Part shown: positions 8,078-62,812 of the stretch, in pieces
How positions within the stretch are numbered: the stretch's first letter is position 1
How the letters are laid out: every line of letters begins with the position of its first letter
Source of the DNA: Armatimonadota bacterium
Lineage (GTDB): Bacteria; Armatimonadota; Fimbriimonadia; Fimbriimonadales; GBS-DC
Assembly (NCBI GenBank): GCA_030550775.1
Contig: JAUQOS010000002.1
Coordinates: 4,808-68,807, forward strand
Length of the DNA stretch: 64,000 nucleotides
Reading direction: 5' to 3'
Notes under the pieces: generated by a model
Told to the model about the DNA's origin: nothing
Databases searched by the model: none
What the model saw: the letters and a program-made list of their open reading frames with translations, nothing else
Translations under genes and position numbers: made by a program

Positions 8078-8383
8078 ATGCTGTATGCCATGGAAGCATT
8101 GGTGGCGTCGCTGACGGTGTTTGTGCTGGCGCTGTTTGTCGGCTTCGAGGTGATTACCAAAGTGCCGCCCACTTTGCACACGCCGTTGATGTCTGGCTCG
8201 AACGCGATTTCAGGCATCACGATTATCGGGGCGATTCTCTCGGCAGGAGCGCAACACACAACGCTGAGCGCGGTGCTCGGCGTGCTGGCGGTGGTGTTGG
8301 CGACCATCAATGTGGTAGGCGGCTTTTTGGTGACCAACCGCATGCTGCAAATGTTCAAACCGAGCGGGCGTCAGGTAAAATAA
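8078..8383 (+). CDS. pntAB: NAD(P) transhydrogenase subunit alpha part 2 (membrane dII piece)
   Basis: 101 aa. FVGFEVITKVPPTLHTPLMSGSNAISGITIIGA closely matches the small PntA2/PntAB subunit. No pntAA or pntB lies adjacent. Confidence 0.85.
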   Translation: MLYAMEALVASLTVFVLALFVGFEVITKVPPTLHTPLMSGSNAISGITIIGAILSAGAQHTTLSAVLGVLAVVLATINVVGGFLVTNRMLQMFKPSGRQVK

Positions 8384-8399
8384 CTTGGGAGGCGCAACG

Positions 8400-8714
8400 A
8401 TGCGAATCGAGCTGTTGTATTACCCCGAGTGCCCCTCGCACGAGCGCACGCTGGAGCTGATTCGCGAGGCGCTCGCGCTGGAGGGCAAACAGGCAGAAAT
8501 TTGCGTGATTCGCATCGACACGCAGGAGCAGGCAGACGCGCACCGCTTCATCGGCTCCCCCACAATCCGCATCAACGGTCACGAGCTCCAGCCTCAGCCG
8601 CACCTACCCTATCGCCTGACCTGCCGTGCGTTCCTCCACGAAGACGGGCGCATCTCCCCCATACCTTCGCTTACGATGTTGCGCGAAGCACTTCGGACTG
8701 CAGAAGGAGGTTGA
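8400..8714 (+). CDS. Small thioredoxin-fold-like protein (hypothetical)
   Basis: 104 aa starting at MRIELLYYPECPSH, with GGGAGG SD upstream. Single-Cys thioredoxin-like N-terminus. Family assignment is uncertain. Confidence 0.55.
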   Translation: MRIELLYYPECPSHERTLELIREALALEGKQAEICVIRIDTQEQADAHRFIGSPTIRINGHELQPQPHLPYRLTCRAFLHEDGRISPIPSLTMLREALRTAEGG

Positions 8715-45588: not shown

Positions 45589-45618
45589 AAACGCGCGCCG
45601 CCTACTCGCTTGGGGGCA

Positions 45619-45839
45619 CATTCCTCGCTTCATTCGGAAGGACAGTGCTGTTTCGCGCAGCCAGTTGATCAATCCGAGCCGAAGGCTGAAATCCCAGAGC
45701 ACTAAAGTGAACTGTTATTCCGAGCCGAAGGCGAGGAATCCCCAGCGGAGCCTCAGCCAGATGCCTCGCCACACTCGGAATGACAGTACGAAGGAAGTAA
45801 AAATGAGCCTGTCATTCCGAGCCGAAGGCGAGGCTCCCC
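45619..45839. repeat. Cluster A of ~27-nt hairpin (REP/BIME-like) repeats, 5 copies in mixed orientation
   Basis: Copies at about 45619-45645 (R, degenerate), 45667-45695 (F, degenerate), 45713-45743 (F), 45760-45786 (R) and 45810-45839 (F). Core is GTCATTCCGAGCCGAAGGCGAGGAATC. Confidence 0.8.
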
Positions 45840-45857: not shown

Positions 45858-46280
45858 TTAGAGGCGAATATCAATAATCCCCGACACGCCCACCCCTTCC
45901 ACACGGTCAATGCTGCGCTGTGGGTTCTTGGTAGAAATCGGGATAAGCGCGCGCAGGCGCACCTCGCGTCCCATAAAGTCACCTTCAATCTGGGCAACGG
46001 CTTGCACCTTGCGTACCAAGTCGGGCTTACCCATCACTTGCGCGGCGCCAATATATGCTCCGTTGCCCGCGCTGATAATCGGCACTACCTTTGTGGCGAA
46101 GTTCGCGTCGGGCTTAGTGTTGGTCAGGCGGTTGAGTGCGCGATCCATGTCGCCGCCTAAGCGATCCACGATGAGCGCAATACCGCCAGCTTTCAACACC
46201 TTGTCCAGCTGCGTGTAGCCGACCACACTGCCTAAAACCAACAAAGCTCCCAATGCCAATCCGCGTAGACGATGTTTCAT
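45858..46280 (-). CDS. Secreted hypothetical protein
   Basis: 140 aa from MKHRLRGLALGALLVLGS, with AGGAGG SD upstream. I recognise no family. Confidence 0.55.
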   Translation of the reverse strand: MKHRLRGLALGALLVLGSVVGYTQLDKVLKAGGIALIVDRLGGDMDRALNRLTNTKPDANFATKVVPIISAGNGAYIGAAQVMGKPDLVRKVQAVAQIEGDFMGREVRLRALIPISTKNPQRSIDRVEGVGVSGIIDIRL

Positions 46281-46371
46281 GGTCAACCTCCTAGGCATAG
46301 CATACCTCACCGCATCCATGCGGCTCGAAATGTCAGACGCACCAATGGGTGAAGCGTTTCACAGGAGGTTC

Positions 46372-57672: not shown

Positions 57673-60216
57673 CTATCGCGTGCTGATGACGGCGTTGAGT
57701 TGGGGGTAGGCATCGGGGCTGATTTTGCGCCCGTGAGCGTCGGTGCAGTAGAAACTCAGCACGGCGCGTCCGGCCCAAAGCCCAAATCGCGCGCTGTGAA
57801 TGTTCCAACCGATTTGCGAGAGCGCGTGGGCGGCGCGGTAGAGCGCGCCTAACTCGGGTGCCGTATGCAGGTCAACCACAGTGTAGGCATCGGAGGCGTC
57901 GTGGTGGATTTGGAGTTGGCTTACTTGCAGGGGCGCGTCGGGGTCTTTGCCGTGCTCGCGCAGCAGGTCGTCGACGGCGCGTTCGCCCAGCAGCACTTGG
58001 CGCAGGGCGCGCTCCAACACCGCGCACTGATTGGGCGAGAGCGGGCGCGAGCGGATGGTAATGCCCAGAGTGTCCAGCGCGACGCGCGGCGTATCCTCGC
58101 GGGTAAGTACGCGCGCCCACGCCACCTCCACCTCATAAGCGTACAGCACGCCCGCGATTTTGCTCAGCAAGCCCGGCTTGGGGTCATCAAAAGTGCAGAG
58201 GGTCAGCTCGGTGTAGGGCTGCTCGGGTGGCTGATGGAACTCCACGACGGGGCCTTCGCCTGCGCGCACACGCTCGATGTAGTGGATATGCAAGCTAATC
58301 TGTTCAGGTGGCGTGTTGAGCAGATAGCCCGAAGGCATCTGCTCGATATGCGCCTCAATCAGTCGTTCGGGGATGGGGTGTTTGGCGAGGGCGCGCAGCA
58401 GGCGTTGGCGGGCGAGGCTGCGTGCGGGCACCTCTTCGGGCAGCCCCTCTTCCAGGGCGCGCAAGCTACGCCGATACAACTCTTTGAGGAAGCTGGCTTG
58501 GGCAGCTGTCCAGATGCGCTCGCCCACAGCTTGCGTGTCGGCGCAGGTGAGCAAATAAAGCATTTGCAGCCGTTCGGGGGTGTTCACGATGCGGGTGAAC
58601 TCGCGGATGGTTTCGGGCAGTTGCAGGTCGCGCTGGCGCGCAGTTTGTGCCATCAGCAAGTGATGGCGTACTAAAAACTCCACTTCAGCGATTTCGCTCT
58701 CGCTCCAGCCGATTGCTGCAAGGCTGTTGCGGGCGATATCCGCGCCTGCCTCGGCGTGAGGGCGGGTAGGGTCAGCTTTGCCTGCATCGTGCAGCAGCAG
58801 CGCCATATAAAGCAACTCTGGTGCGGGCAGCTGCTCTAAGATGGTGTGCCACAGAGGGTCGCCCTCGCCGCGAGCGTAGCTGTCCAACAGGCGAATGGCT
58901 TGCAGGGTGTGCTCGCCGACGGTGAACTCGTGGGTGGGGTCGCCCGCTTGCAGGGGCATCAGCGATGCAAAGGGTGGGAACGCCCAGCCCAGCACGCCCA
59001 ATCGTGCCATCGGCTCCAACACGCGGTAGACCTCGCCGGGGCGGCGCAATAGCTCGCGCAGCGTGTTACCGACGGTGTGCGGGTCGGGCGGGGCATCGGC
59101 AGGGGTTTCCAGCCGCGCCTCAATCGCACGGCTCAGCCCCAGCTGATAGCGTTGCGCCAGTAGGAAGCACAACAGTCGCCATTCGGGTGGCTCGCGGTCT
59201 AGGGCGGGGGCGGGCACGATTTGCCGATTAACGCTATCCAGCCCGACGCCCAGCACGAGCGGCGCGTTCACAAGCCGTTCAATACCACGCTCGGTGAGGC
59301 GGGCGTGGTCGGCAAGCGCGGTGTAAACCTCGCGCATCATCGCGCTGCGCTCTACGCCCAGCCGCTCCGCTAACTCGTTTTGTTTGGGCAAGGTGAGCAC
59401 TTCGCGTGCCTCGCCGCTAATCGCGTGCAGCAGGGCGCGATAGCGTTGCAGGGTGCGGGTGGCATGTTGCAGCGCATCGGCTTCAGCTTGCGAAAGGATG
59501 CCTTCTGCGACCAAGGTGGGCAACACTTGGGTGTGAGGCACGCTAAAGTGGGCTTGCGCCATCCAATCAAGGGTATGGCGGTCGCGCAGCCCGCCGCGCC
59601 CCTCTTTGAGGTCAGGTGTAGCGCGCATGATGCCCTCGCCCAACTTCGCCCAGCGGGCTTGACATTCGCGGTAGCGCTCCAGCGTGAAGCCCGTGGGGTC
59701 TAAACTGTGCCAGAATCGCTGGCTGAACGCTTCCACAAGCTCGGAGTCGCCCTCAATCAGGCGCATTTCCAGCAGCCCCGTGCGCGTTTTGTGGTCTAAG
59801 GTATCGCAGTCGTCCATCAGGCGATAAGCGTAGCCCACTTTGAGTTTAGCGTCGGTGTAAAACACCTGCATCAGGGCGTGGAACAATCGCTTGACGAGCC
59901 GCTCGGTGAACGGGTCGCCTTCCTGAGCGGGCACAAAGGTGATATCAATATCGGAGTAGGGGGCGAGTTCGCGTCTGCCGTAGCCGCCTGTAGCAAACAG
60001 AGCGAGTGGATTGCGAGGAGGCGAGGGCACTTCTTGAGCGGCTTGCACCCACGCGCGGCGGAACAAGGCACGCAGCGTGTTATCTAGTACGGTCGCGTAC
60101 TGTTCCATCCACGCCTCTATCGGCACGCTTGGGTCAAACAGCGCGTCGGTAAGGTGTCGCCGCGCCACAATCAGCTGCTGCGCGATGGTTTCGCAGCCCT
60201 CCACGATGCCTTGCAT
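57673..60216 (-). CDS. glnD: [Protein-PII] uridylyltransferase/uridylyl-removing enzyme
   Basis: 847 aa. Nucleotidyltransferase motif ATGGYGRRELAPYSDIDI, HD domain (LLLHDAGK) and two C-terminal ACT-like regions. TACACT lies 9 nt upstream of the ATG with no SD. Confidence 0.86.
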   Translation of the reverse strand: MQGIVEGCETIAQQLIVARRHLTDALFDPSVPIEAWMEQYATVLDNTLRALFRRAWVQAAQEVPSPPRNPLALFATGGYGRRELAPYSDIDITFVPAQEGDPFTERLVKRLFHALMQVFYTDAKLKVGYAYRLMDDCDTLDHKTRTGLLEMRLIEGDSELVEAFSQRFWHSLDPTGFTLERYRECQARWAKLGEGIMRATPDLKEGRGGLRDRHTLDWMAQAHFSVPHTQVLPTLVAEGILSQAEADALQHATRTLQRYRALLHAISGEAREVLTLPKQNELAERLGVERSAMMREVYTALADHARLTERGIERLVNAPLVLGVGLDSVNRQIVPAPALDREPPEWRLLCFLLAQRYQLGLSRAIEARLETPADAPPDPHTVGNTLRELLRRPGEVYRVLEPMARLGVLGWAFPPFASLMPLQAGDPTHEFTVGEHTLQAIRLLDSYARGEGDPLWHTILEQLPAPELLYMALLLHDAGKADPTRPHAEAGADIARNSLAAIGWSESEIAEVEFLVRHHLLMAQTARQRDLQLPETIREFTRIVNTPERLQMLYLLTCADTQAVGERIWTAAQASFLKELYRRSLRALEEGLPEEVPARSLARQRLLRALAKHPIPERLIEAHIEQMPSGYLLNTPPEQISLHIHYIERVRAGEGPVVEFHQPPEQPYTELTLCTFDDPKPGLLSKIAGVLYAYEVEVAWARVLTREDTPRVALDTLGITIRSRPLSPNQCAVLERALRQVLLGERAVDDLLREHGKDPDAPLQVSQLQIHHDASDAYTVVDLHTAPELGALYRAAHALSQIGWNIHSARFGLWAGRAVLSFYCTDAHGRKISPDAYPQLNAVISTR

Positions 60217-60269
60217 TCACGATGGAGTGTACCCCAGCGCGCCATGTTGAGCCATGTTGCTTGGTGTGT

Positions 60270-60481
60270 GAGATTCCTCGCTTCGCTCGGAATGACAAGG
60301 GTTGGCTCCAGTGCGTCACCCCGAGCGCAGCGAGGGGTCTCGACGATGTGTTGGTTTGTCACCCCGAGCGCAGCGAGGGGTCTCGGCATGCCCTGCCAGA
60401 GATTCCTCGCCTTCGGCTCGGAATGACAGGCTTACTTTTCGCCTCCATAGTTCTGTCATTCCGAGCGCAGCGAGGAATCTC
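60270..60481. repeat. Cluster B of hairpin repeats (5 copies), between metK and glnD
   Basis: 60270-60297 (R), 60315-60342 (F, CACCCC..GGGGT variant), 60358-60385 (F, identical to the previous copy, 43-nt period), 60399-60429 (R), 60454-60481 (F). Confidence 0.85.
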
Positions 60482-60510
60482 ACTCGCTCAAAACAGATGA
60501 GCGGCTCGGG

Positions 60511-61647
60511 TTATGCTAAGTCGGCAAACAGCGACACTGAGTCGCGATGCTCCCAACGAAAGCTGGGGTGCCCAAAGTGCCCATTTTTGGCAGTGGGCAG
60601 GTATTGTGGCTTCTGCAAATCCAGGAACTGAATAATGCCGCGCGGGCTGAGGTCAAACGATTCCTGAATGCGCTTGACGATTTTGGCAGGGTCTACCTTG
60701 TGGGTGCCGAAGGTTTCCAGCAGCAGCGACACGGGCTGTGCCACGCCGATGGCGTAGGAGATTTGCAGCTCTACCTTGTCGGCCAGCCCCGCTGCCACGA
60801 TGTTTTTGGCTAAGTAGCGTGCCATATATGCAGCCGAGCGATCCACTTTGGTAGGGTCTTTACCTGAGAACGCACCCCCGCCATGACGGCAGTAGCCACC
60901 GTAGGTATCCACGATGACTTTGCGCCCCGTCACACCCGTGTCGGCTTGCGGACCACCCAGCACGAACACGCCCGTTGGGTTCACATAGTAGTGTTTAGCA
61001 TTGATGTCTACGCGGTCGGCGAATCGCTCCAGCACAGGCTTGATTACATATTCCAGCACGCGCTCGCGCACTTCCGCTTGGCTCAAGTGGGGCTCGTGCT
61101 GGGCGGAGATGACCACGGTATCAATCGCTTTCGGGATGCCGTTTTCGTAGAGCACGGTTACTTGCGACTTGCCATCGGGGCGGAAGCCGAGTTCGGGGTT
61201 CGCTTTACGCACCTCGGCGAGTTGACGCGTCAGCGCGTGGGCAATCGTAATAGGCAGCGGCATCAGCTCGGGGGTTTCGGTGCAAGCAAAGCCGAACATC
61301 ATGCCCTGATCGCCCGCCCCACCGATATCCACGCCCCGACTAATGTCGGGCGACTGCTTCTGGAGCGCAACCATCACCCCGCACGAGTCGCCCTCGAATC
61401 CGTACTCAGTTTTCGTGTAGCCGACCTCGTTGATGGTGCGACGCACAACGTCGGGGATGTCGAGATGCGCGTGGGTAGTAACCTCGCCAGCAATGACCGC
61501 CAAGCCCCGCGTCAGCAGAGTTTCCACCGCAACGCGCGATTGCGAATCTTGACGCAAGCACTCATCTAAAATCGCATCGCTAATCTGATCTGCCAGCTTG
61601 TCTGGATGCCCTTCCGTCACGCTTTCCGAAGTAAACGGTTGCAGCAT
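60511..61647 (-). CDS. metK: S-adenosylmethionine synthetase
   Basis: 378 aa. [24 protein letters not shown] and [19 protein letters not shown] are canonical MetK motifs. GAGGAGG SD upstream. Confidence 0.95.
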
Positions 61648-61719
61648 CTATTTGCCTCCTCTAATGTTGTTAGGTATTACGCTACGCCCCACGTAGTCGA
61701 TGGGCAGCTGCTTAGGGGT

Positions 61720-61725
61720 ATTATA
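61720..61725 (-). promoter_or_regulatory. -10 TATAAT upstream of metK
   Basis: Minus strand reads CGCGGTATAATACCCC, about 70 nt before the metK ATG. The -35 is weak. Confidence 0.45.
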
Positions 61726-61775
61726 CCGCGTTTTGAGGCTGTTTGAGCATCCTTAGCATCTGTCACAGTCGTAGC

Positions 61776-61916
61776 GTCGGCGGGGACGCCGACGAAAGCC
61801 CTCGCTACACTCGGAATGACAAGACTCCCACGCAAATATGCTTGTCATTCCAAGCCGAAGGCGAGGAGTCTCTGGCAGGGCATGCTTGAGACCCCTCGCT
61901 GCGCTTGGGGTGACAG
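61776..61916. repeat. Cluster C of hairpin repeats between divergent metK and thiD
   Basis: GTCGGCG-GGGA-CGCCGAC hairpin at 61776-61793. Repeat copies at 61797-61821 (R), 61843-61872 (F) and 61888-61916 (R, GGGGT..CACCCC variant). 61841-61916 is the inverted counterpart of 60358-60429. Confidence 0.85.
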
Positions 61917-62020
61917 GCTTTGTAGGGAGTCTCATCGTAGGTGGCAATCTGGGTTATGGATTGGCCTCCTGCAATCTCTGGCACTTCACACATAGGGTGT
62001 ATGGTAAAATCTCATCTGCC

Positions 62021-62812
62021 ATGCGTAAGGCACTAACGATCGCAGGTTCCGATTCTGGAGCAGGGGCGGGCATCCAAGCTGATTTGAAAACTTTTGCGGC
62101 GTTGGGCGTATACGGCACCAGCGCGATTACTGCCCTCACTGCGCAAAACACAGTTGGCGTGCAAGCAGTGTTCCCCGTGGCACCCGAGTTTGTGGGGCAG
62201 CAGATCGATTCGGTGATGAGCGATATCGGCGCCGATGCCGCGAAAACGGGCATGCTGTTCAGCGCGGAGATTATTGAGGTTGTGGCTGCGCGCGTGCGCC
62301 ACTGGAACATTGAGAAGTTAGTGGTAGACCCCGTGATGGTTGCCAAAAGTGGCGACCGTCTGCTGCAGGAGGAAGCGATCGACGCGCTCAAGCGCGAAAT
62401 CATACCGCTGGCGTATGTGATTACGCCCAACTTGGGCGAGGCGAGCGTGTTAGCAGGTTTTGAGGTGAGCGACCGCCACACGATGGAGGAGGCAGCTCGC
62501 GCCATTCACGCGCTGGGGGCGAAGTTCGTGGTGGTCAAGGGCGGGCATCTGCCCGACCGCGCCGACGATGTGGTCTACGATGGCTCCGCCTTCCACTGGC
62601 TGCCTGCCGAGCATATTGACACGCCCCACACGCACGGCACGGGGTGCACCTTCTCGGCGGCGATTGCCGCGCTGTTGGCGAAGGGCTATGCCCCGTTAGA
62701 GGCGATCGCTCGCGCTAAAGATTACCTAACGGCGGCTCTGCGCACCGCCTACGCAGTGGGCAAGGGGCACGGACCTGTGCATCACTTCCACGCTTACTAC
62801 CCGCCGAGCTAA
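62021..62812 (+). CDS. thiD: Hydroxymethylpyrimidine/phosphomethylpyrimidine kinase
   Basis: 263 aa from MRKALTIAGSDSGAGAGIQADLKTF.A.GVYG.S.ITA.TAQNT, with C-terminal GTGCTFSAAIAA. TAAAAT lies 10 nt upstream of the ATG with no SD. The track ORF from 61838 runs through repeats and was rejected. Confidence 0.88.
   Translation: MRKALTIAGSDSGAGAGIQADLKTFAALGVYGTSAITALTAQNTVGVQAVFPVAPEFVGQQIDSVMSDIGADAAKTGMLFSAEIIEVVAARVRHWNIEKLVVDPVMVAKSGDRLLQEEAIDALKREIIPLAYVITPNLGEASVLAGFEVSDRHTMEEAARAIHALGAKFVVVKGGHLPDRADDVVYDGSAFHWLPAEHIDTPHTHGTGCTFSAAIAALLAKGYAPLEAIARAKDYLTAALRTAYAVGKGHGPVHHFHAYYPPS

Follow-up and report, generated by a model that had tools for sequence, protein, structure and literature searches.

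An inverted pair of dispersed CGTC/NTS-like hairpin doublets around metK in an Armatimonadota genome, and their probable link to Ssn-type nucleases

In the 64,000-nt stretch of contig JAUQOS010000002.1 analysed here (assembly GCA_030550775.1, Armatimonadota, Fimbriimonadales; hereafter the window), the S-adenosylmethionine synthetase gene metK (60511..61647, minus strand, 378 aa) is bracketed by two inverted copies of a repeat of ~75 nt. The gene itself stands outside the repeat system: its product has the full set of three S-AdoMet synthetase domains (E 3e-64 to 7e-42), and its closest homologues are found in metagenome-assembled genomes (MAGs) of Fimbriimonadales/Armatimonadota. A glnD-like nucleotidyltransferase/HD gene lies downstream of metK (57673..60216, minus strand), and thiD, encoding phosphomethylpyrimidine kinase (62021..62812, plus strand), is divergent from it, with the right-hand repeat cluster located in the 373-nt upstream region common to metK and thiD. 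The element GGTATAATACC (minus-strand reading, 61717..61727), 70 nt upstream of the ATG and of the GGTATAAT type, is the likely metK -10 as read from the sequence, a consensus scan having called no full promoter there; this -10 and the leader fall within the bracket. The GGTATAATAC motif before metK is also present in L193, one of the Fimbriimonadales relatives compared below.

Aligned with MAFFT (60340-60445(+) against 61826-61931(rc)), the left arm (60357..60430, plus strand) and the reverse complement of the right arm (61841..61915, minus strand) form an unbroken match from TGTCACCCC through GGAATGACA, with five substitutions in the ~75-nt core, a sixth at its edge and an indel of 1 nt where the linker begins, giving an identity of ~91-92%. 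A repeat search returned the same match as two inverted blocks, I1 (52 nt, 90%) and I4 (28 nt, 96%). In each arm, one CCCC-type unit (A) and one TTCC-type unit (B) are placed tail-to-tail, 14-15 nt apart. In the left arm, delimited by alignment, repeat search and unit scan, unit A (TGTCACCCC...GGGGTCTC, 60357-60384, plus strand) is joined by a 14-nt linker (GGCATGCCCTGCCA, 60385-60398) to unit B (TGTCATTCCGAGCCGAAGGCGAGGAATCTC, 60399-60428, minus strand); the right arm carries the same doublet in the opposite orientation, with unit B at 61843-61872 (plus strand), a 15-nt linker at 61873-61887 and unit A at 61888-61915 (minus strand). In the window, the 15-mer linker TCTGGCAGGGCATGC is present at two places only, 60386-60400(-) and 61871-61885(+), once per arm. 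The original prediction had quoted these two segments, which are indeed present where it placed them, as pairs of hairpin units sharing a linker, with about five differences between them, and as facing each other across metK, its -10 and its leader over ~1.4 kb. The observation is confirmed, the measured arm-to-arm distance being 1410 nt.

Because its two units are inverted, each arm folds as one long hairpin on either strand. As single-stranded DNA (ssDNA), the left arm reaches -23.5 kcal/mol (z -4.9) on the plus strand and -24.7 (z -4.7) on the minus strand, and the right arm -25.9 kcal/mol (z -5.1) and -23.6 (z -5.3), respectively. In both units of the right arm, CCAAGC replaces CCGAGC, a G to A change that falls at one and the same position of the unit. 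Inside one unit, it merely alters a G.A mismatch, and only in the long hairpin is it compensatory, turning a G-C pair into A-T. A doublet in the relative L193 (6740-6792) has the CCAAGC variant too, which suggests doublet sub-lineages evolving as palindromes.

The 72-nt composite noticed originally is the core of a ~200-nt mosaic, itself dispersed, that resembles a bacterial interspersed mosaic element (BIME). A tolerant scan found 12 units in the window, all within three intergenic gaps (four in 45617-45839, five in 60270-60481 and three in 61794-61915), and these gaps are the longest intergenic regions in an otherwise compact stretch; a profile built from the units of other genomes gave no significant match elsewhere in the 64 kb. 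Given that a 27-nt unit pattern has five matches in the window against 0.00 expected from 100 shuffles, a chance origin of the unit sequence is excluded. Two types are distinguished, type A with a GCA or GAA loop and type B with the centre GCC-GAA-GGC. The 5' tag is TGTC in 10 of the 12 units, with one CGTC and one TGTT, and all seven intact units around metK read YGTC-A...T-C.

Eight units surround metK in alternating orientation with conserved spacers, as expected of the BIME-like mosaic, rather than a single repetitive extragenic palindromic (REP) sequence, that the original prediction had proposed. The left mosaic opens with a unit with a GAA loop (TGTCATTCCGAGCGAAGCGAGGAATCTC, 60270..60297, minus strand; nhmmer E 4.8e-11), set head-to-head, across the spacer AGGGTTGGCTCCAGTG (60298..60313), with a unit bearing the CGTC tag (CGTCACCCCGAGCGCAGCGAGGGGTCTC, 60314..60341, plus strand). 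A 43-nt tandem duplication of a unit and its 3' spacer (60315-60357 and 60358-60400) copies the start of the left arm, and the mosaic closes with the unit TGTCATTCCGAGCGCAGCGAGGAATCTC (60454..60481, plus strand), which ends 30 nt from the metK stop codon. This last unit is 97% complementary to the first (60270-60297), which allows the left cluster as a whole to fold into a single nested structure. On the other side of metK, a decayed unit (TGTCATTCCGAGTGTAGCGAGGGCTTTC, 61794..61821, minus strand; profile E 2.4e-4) stands head-to-head with the right arm. The third cluster (45617..45839) comprises four units, partly decayed, in another intergenic gap; it is flanked by a DUF1559/N-methyl (prepilin-like) gene and a 153-aa open reading frame (ORF; 45858-46319) with no Pfam match.

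A linker-plus-unit pattern had no match in 185,579 representative genomes, a collection that does not include the source genome, and was found on two metagenome contigs, L122 and L123. The first is the metK locus of a 99.68% identical strain and ends inside the right arm, at window position 61864. The second is an unrelated locus with a doublet 74/75 identical (98.7%) to the left arm plus a further, diverged doublet; the left arm is thus nearer to this copy than to the right arm on the other side of metK. The L123 mosaic (8370-8580) is colinear with the left cluster of the window, including the head-to-head spacer, conserved there as ATGGTTGGCTACAGTT, and lacks only the 43-nt tandem duplication. 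A third assembly, L001 (99.81% identical), runs through thiD, the right arm and metK to a break inside a unit, at window position 60456. Both near-identical-strain assemblies, made independently, therefore break inside units, and most contigs with Ssn-like genes, described below, are shorter than 2 kb. The breaks point to a high-copy repeat, and 12 units in 64 kb allow no more than a guess at the copy number.

In Fimbriimonadales relatives whose MetK is 89-91% identical, the repeats are missing from this position: we found no units in the metK-surrounding DNA compared for L188-L192 and L194, and none adjoining metK in L193, which has the related doublet mentioned above at a site away from metK. 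The neighbours of metK in L188-L193 include CT398-like/2-Hacid_dh, nuoF/IMPDH and MFS/glnD-like pairs, and thiD/glnD-like in the window. In L193, metK lies next to the glnD-like gene across a gap of 21 nt, against 294 nt in the window. Given the relatives without units at metK and the adjacency kept in L193 with its short gap, the repeats were inserted in situ and recently, and metK was not brought in between them. No association with metK was found in other phyla, the only other metK among the 120 loci listed below (L040) having a unit 1.5 kb off. With three of ~52 intergenic gaps occupied, simple arithmetic gives P ~0.11 that two of the three are adjacent, and whether the arms then face each other or point the same way is a coin toss. 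At the density seen in the window, chance alone would be expected to put clusters on both sides of roughly a dozen genes per 4000, about two or three of them with one doublet in inverted orientation. The arrangement is thus not beyond chance: the repeats lie beside metK in this lineage only, and the bracket is incidental and recent.

The unit itself is widespread. Its consensus, of ~28 nt, is (T/C)GTC-AYYCC-GA-GC-GNA-GC-GA-GGRRT-C. The (T/C)GTC tag at the 5' end is unpaired; AYYCC and GGRRT form an outer stem of 5 bp, followed inwards by a conserved tandem G.A/A.G mismatch, a short GC/GC stem and a triloop GNA, and the base that comes right after the palindrome is C. Scanning the representative genomes with GTCAYYCCGAGCN{3,5}GCGAGGRRTC returned at least 120 stretches, with 146 units among the matches listed, and all figures given here on 120 loci, 146 units and 4761 ORFs refer to these listed matches. 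By record title, they come from MAGs of Acidobacteriota, Chloroflexota, Gemmatimonadota, Planctomycetota, Nitrospirota, Bacteroidia, several classes of Proteobacteria, Armatimonadota, Verrucomicrobiota, Clostridia and candidate-phyla-radiation bacteria, among others, and the labels of the MAGs with unit variants span at least a dozen phyla. One exact unit lies on a contig binned as a DPANN archaeon (Nanoarchaeota MAG JAHIPG010000372.1, L030, 2730-2754), which could reflect transfer or a binning error. The unit pattern is also present on 58 stretches of viral or proviral contigs in IMG/VR (L130-L187), none with an Ssn-like gene. A BLAST search of the PLSDB plasmids with the left arm gave no match, and full-text literature searches for unit sequence strings retrieved nothing relevant.

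Across these genomes, the hairpin is under constraint. The two free stem positions are Watson-Crick paired in 144 of the 146 units (TT/AA 82, TC/GA 60, CT/AG 1, CC/GG 1), and the remaining two have T.G wobbles. The first stem pair is A-T throughout, and the second is T-A in most units and C-G in the CCCC-type units of the window. In a looser set of 177 sequences, compensatory changes were observed at five stem pairs, while the G.A and A.G positions are unpaired and conserved in 131 and 144 of the sequences, respectively. The three-base loops are mostly GNA (GAA 33, GTA 21, GCA 18 and GGA 18 of the 146). The base before GTC is T in 116 units and C in 17; the tail is C, followed by T in 117 units and then by a variable base, and reads CTC in the window. 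Dimers are tail-to-tail in 82 cases, head-to-head in 11 and head-to-tail in 9.

These features recall the NTS repeats of Neisseria (CGTCATTCCCGCGMAVGCGGGAATCYRG), which are the target of SsnA, a 94-aa GIY-YIG protein that binds and cuts NTS only as ssDNA and on one strand (Chenal et al. 2025, PMC11893778). In that system, cleavage depends on the three bases that precede the palindrome and binding on the C that follows it; motifs of the NTS type typically flank ssnA genes, and NTS-gene-NTS DNA transforms less well (PMC11893778). Among our listed loci, L059 (a Terriglobia MAG) encodes a 90-aa GIY-YIG protein with PF01541 as its sole domain (E 1.7e-14), with a (+) unit just upstream of the gene and a (-) unit just downstream. 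Five further homologues of this protein were taken from long contigs, all at least 67% identical to the query. The ~100-aa GIY-YIG gene is flanked on both sides by units at five of the six loci (L059, L124/L125, L127, L128 and L129), and at L126 there is a downstream unit only, a long-stem variant, so units are present at all six loci examined. At the four further bracketed loci, the downstream (-) unit overlaps the end of the gene and supplies its TGA stop codon; in L128, for instance, the gene spans 2001-2330 and the unit 2307-2331, and it is the ATGAC head of the unit that provides the TGA. In several Acidobacteriota contigs (L126-L129; gene 2001-2330/2351/2384), the Ssn-like gene with its units has a conserved location, between carA and carB.

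Compared with the ssnA locus of Neisseria gonorrhoeae, where seven copies of NTS lie within 1 kb, the L059 protein shows 48% identity over 93% of its length (E 1e-16). Further matches of this protein are GIY-YIG genes in Novosphingobium, Sinorhizobium and Azospirillum, genera for which CGTC REPs are listed. On the strength of the GIY-YIG loci with units and of this similarity to the gonococcal locus, an Ssn-type ssDNA nuclease, and not a REP-associated tyrosine transposase (RAYT), is the likely partner of the units. The original prediction had suggested, among three possible roles, binding sites for a REP-associated protein; this comes closest to our results, with the difference that the protein indicated is an Ssn-type GIY-YIG nuclease and not a RAYT.

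We consider it likely that each arm is an independent copy of one dispersed tail-to-tail heterodimer, that the bracketing of metK is incidental and recent, and that an Ssn-type partner is encoded elsewhere in the genome. BIME-like mosaics of units have been inserted into a few intergenic gaps of this Fimbriimonadales genome. In single-stranded DNA, each unit would fold and be bound by a single-domain Ssn-type GIY-YIG nuclease encoded elsewhere in the genome, with the cut a few nucleotides to the 5' side of the tag. The substrate would be incoming or replicating ssDNA, and this cutting may also underlie the spread of the repeat. In form, the doublets resemble unit-ssn-unit cassettes in miniature, without the gene.

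Several observations weigh against this interpretation. A profile search found no ssn homologue in the 64-kb window, L122 or L123, and any cognate partner enzyme in this genome is putative. The association with Ssn was seen only in Acidobacteriota-type loci, those at least 67% identical to the query, and not in Armatimonadota. The published search pattern for Ssn-related motifs (SRM), HGTCWYN(0-2)YYVSBRHN(0-5)WNVSBRGN(0-2)RNCYNB (PMC11893778), matches none of the window units and none of the 146 listed units, while a canonical NTS used as a control does match; the failure is due to the G.A positions. NTS has neither the 3-nt loop nor the tandem G.A mismatches of the units, and tail-to-tail dimers dominate here, as opposed to head-to-head dimers in the CGTC families. 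The basis for any copy number is the 64-kb window.

A further-reaching reading, to which we give a small probability, is that the units form a distinct, uncatalogued branch of Ssn-related hairpins and that the metK bracket is an 'SRM-gene-SRM' recombination barrier outside Neisseria. The tandem G.A mismatch, the GNA triloop and the predominance of tail-to-tail doublets may be the marks of such a branch, whose unit would be common, near-unchanged, to MAGs labelled with at least a dozen phyla while being missed by the published SRM pattern. With doublets on either side of metK, each strand has a correctly oriented predicted cut site at each flank. Should a cognate Ssn be encoded in the genome, metK DNA arriving in single-stranded form would be cut off at its two ends. 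An effect on the recombination of incoming ssDNA is possible.

A role at the RNA level, in which the left cluster would stabilise the 3' end of the metK mRNA or serve as its processing site and the right cluster would form part of the upstream RNA of thiD or metK, seems to us unlikely. The left cluster starts 30 nt past the metK stop codon, its minus-strand RNA folds at -151 kcal/mol (z -9.45), and REPs of other bacteria are often transcribed and located 3' of genes (PMC3733652). Against this, the units occur in both orientations and also in the divergent promoter region, they are not followed by a terminator-like T run, and relatives express metK without them. A consensus scan for sigma-70 promoters and terminators performed no better than shuffles. 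Rfam searches of the whole window at the gathering threshold, and of 60150-62100 at E<=10, gave only chance matches to miRNA hairpins and no known RNA family, and in 61648-62020 they revealed neither an S-adenosylmethionine riboswitch before metK nor a thiamine pyrophosphate riboswitch before thiD. Moreover, SsnA does not bind RNA (PMC11893778). An effect on the metK mRNA end is possible, at most as a secondary effect of the insertion.

We regard as somewhat less probable again a classical REPIN (a REP doublet forming a hairpin) or REP-BIME system, in which the doublet would be a REPIN mobilised by a single-copy RAYT (TnpA-REP, an HUH Y1 transposase) encoded elsewhere in the genome. The anatomy is that of a REPIN, with two inverted hairpin units around a short spacer forming one long hairpin in a dispersed population; the clusters alternate in unit orientation, and the paired G-C to A-T change of the right arm is compensatory only in that long hairpin. 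What speaks against it is the tag, (T/C)GTC, since canonical RAYT-associated REPs carry a 5' GT[AG]G tetranucleotide at the foot of the hairpin (PMC6006769) and CGTC REPs have no associated transposase (PMC3733652). The RAYT gene that the original prediction had named as worth looking for was not found: a Pfam scan of 20 small or unassigned window ORFs detected no Y1_Tnp domain, and a scan of the 4761 ORFs of the 120 listed loci detected no HUH...Y motif. An all-against-all BLAST of these ORFs revealed no enriched neighbour family beyond generic large ones and ribosomal protein L20, and dispersed units are not usually beside their enzyme; by contrast, six of the six GIY-YIG loci examined carry the unit.

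A functional metK cassette, whether open to inversion or excision by recombining arms, as proposed originally, or imported as a whole, is very improbable: the ~75-nt inverted repeats with an identical linker do enclose exactly one gene and its promoter, and the metK neighbours do differ among Fimbriimonadales relatives, but three independent assemblies (the window, L122 and L001, 99.7-99.8% identical) are colinear across the arms with neither inversion nor deletion, L193 keeps the metK-glnD-like adjacency across the left-arm site, relatives with MetK 89-91% identical have no repeats there, the adjacency of two occupied gaps has the unremarkable probability calculated above, and the arms are short and, at ~91% identity, less alike than the left arm and the L123 copy.

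For metK itself, the finding is of little importance, the bracket being a recent by-product of repeat insertion and not a regulatory or recombination device. Of broader interest is that very distant bacteria have in common one ~28-nt hairpin, marked by its conserved tandem G.A mismatch and GNA triloop, and that this hairpin brackets small GIY-YIG genes homologous to ssnA. Because the published SRM pattern misses this unit, current counts of Ssn target repeats are probably underestimates, and each repeat/nuclease pair could supply a new specificity for tools that cut ssDNA at defined sites. On the practical side, the units break short-read assemblies and yield spurious small ORFs. In the window, ORFs of 60-90 aa cross the repeat clusters (60222-60500(+) and 61805-61993(-)), and the public assembly L001 calls a 62-aa gene across the right arm (1620-1808). 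These are most likely spurious products of the repeats.

Among known systems, the REPIN/RAYT elements and the REP-BIMEs of Escherichia coli (Bertels & Rainey 2011; Nunvar 2010; Ton-Hoang 2012) share with the units the inverted doublets with a conserved spacer that form one long hairpin, the mosaics of alternating orientation, the intergenic dispersal and an enzyme gene flanked by inverted units. They differ in the tag, which is YGTC here and not GTAG, and in the enzyme, GIY-YIG here and not HUH Y1. REPIN populations are also described as lineage-specific and vertically inherited, whereas the sequence of our unit is common to many phyla.

The CGTC-tagged REPs (Di Nocera et al. 2013, PMC3733652) are closer. 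They carry a CGTC or TGTC tag, with CCTC allowed, stems of 8-9 bp with complementary A-T almost invariably in the first and second positions, a 4-5 nt loop and a 3-nt unpaired tail with the consensus CCA; they occur in several phyla, and in them head-to-head dimers predominate and clusters are rare (PMC3733652). The units likewise have a CGTC/TGTC tag, a stem of nine positions beginning with A-T and a short 3' tail beginning with C, and both form larger-hairpin dimers, commonly heterodimers, in intergenic DNA of several phyla with no dedicated transposase known. Unlike the CGTC REPs, the units have a loop that is mostly a 3-nt GNA (90 of the 146), reaching 5 nt only if the closing C-G pair is left uncounted. 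Their nine-position stem (AYYCC-GA-GC) is broken by two conserved G.A mismatches, the second stem pair is C-G in the CCCC-type units of the window, the tail is CTC and not CCA, and the dimers are mostly tail-to-tail (82 against 11 head-to-head).

The Neisseria NTS/dRS3 repeats differ from the units in having a continuous 8-bp stem and a 4-nt loop, where the units have the G.A/A.G mismatch, the GC/GC stem and the GNA triloop; the host here is an Armatimonadota MAG with no ssn gene within the 64 kb. The likeness extends to the tag and the start of the stem (YGTCATTCC...GGAATC), to the length of 28 nt and to the GTC before and the C after the palindrome, both kept in the intact units of the window. 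NTS, too, is intergenic, clustered and directional, a repeat-gene-repeat arrangement around ordinary genes has been described for it as well, and in other genomes, our unit family brackets single-domain GIY-YIG genes with 48% identity to the Neisseria ssnA locus. We thus place the units alongside the CGTC-tagged REP superfamily and the NTS/dRS3 repeats of Neisseria, and they bring CGTC/NTS-like, Ssn-associated hairpin repeats to a phylum in which such repeats had not been described before.

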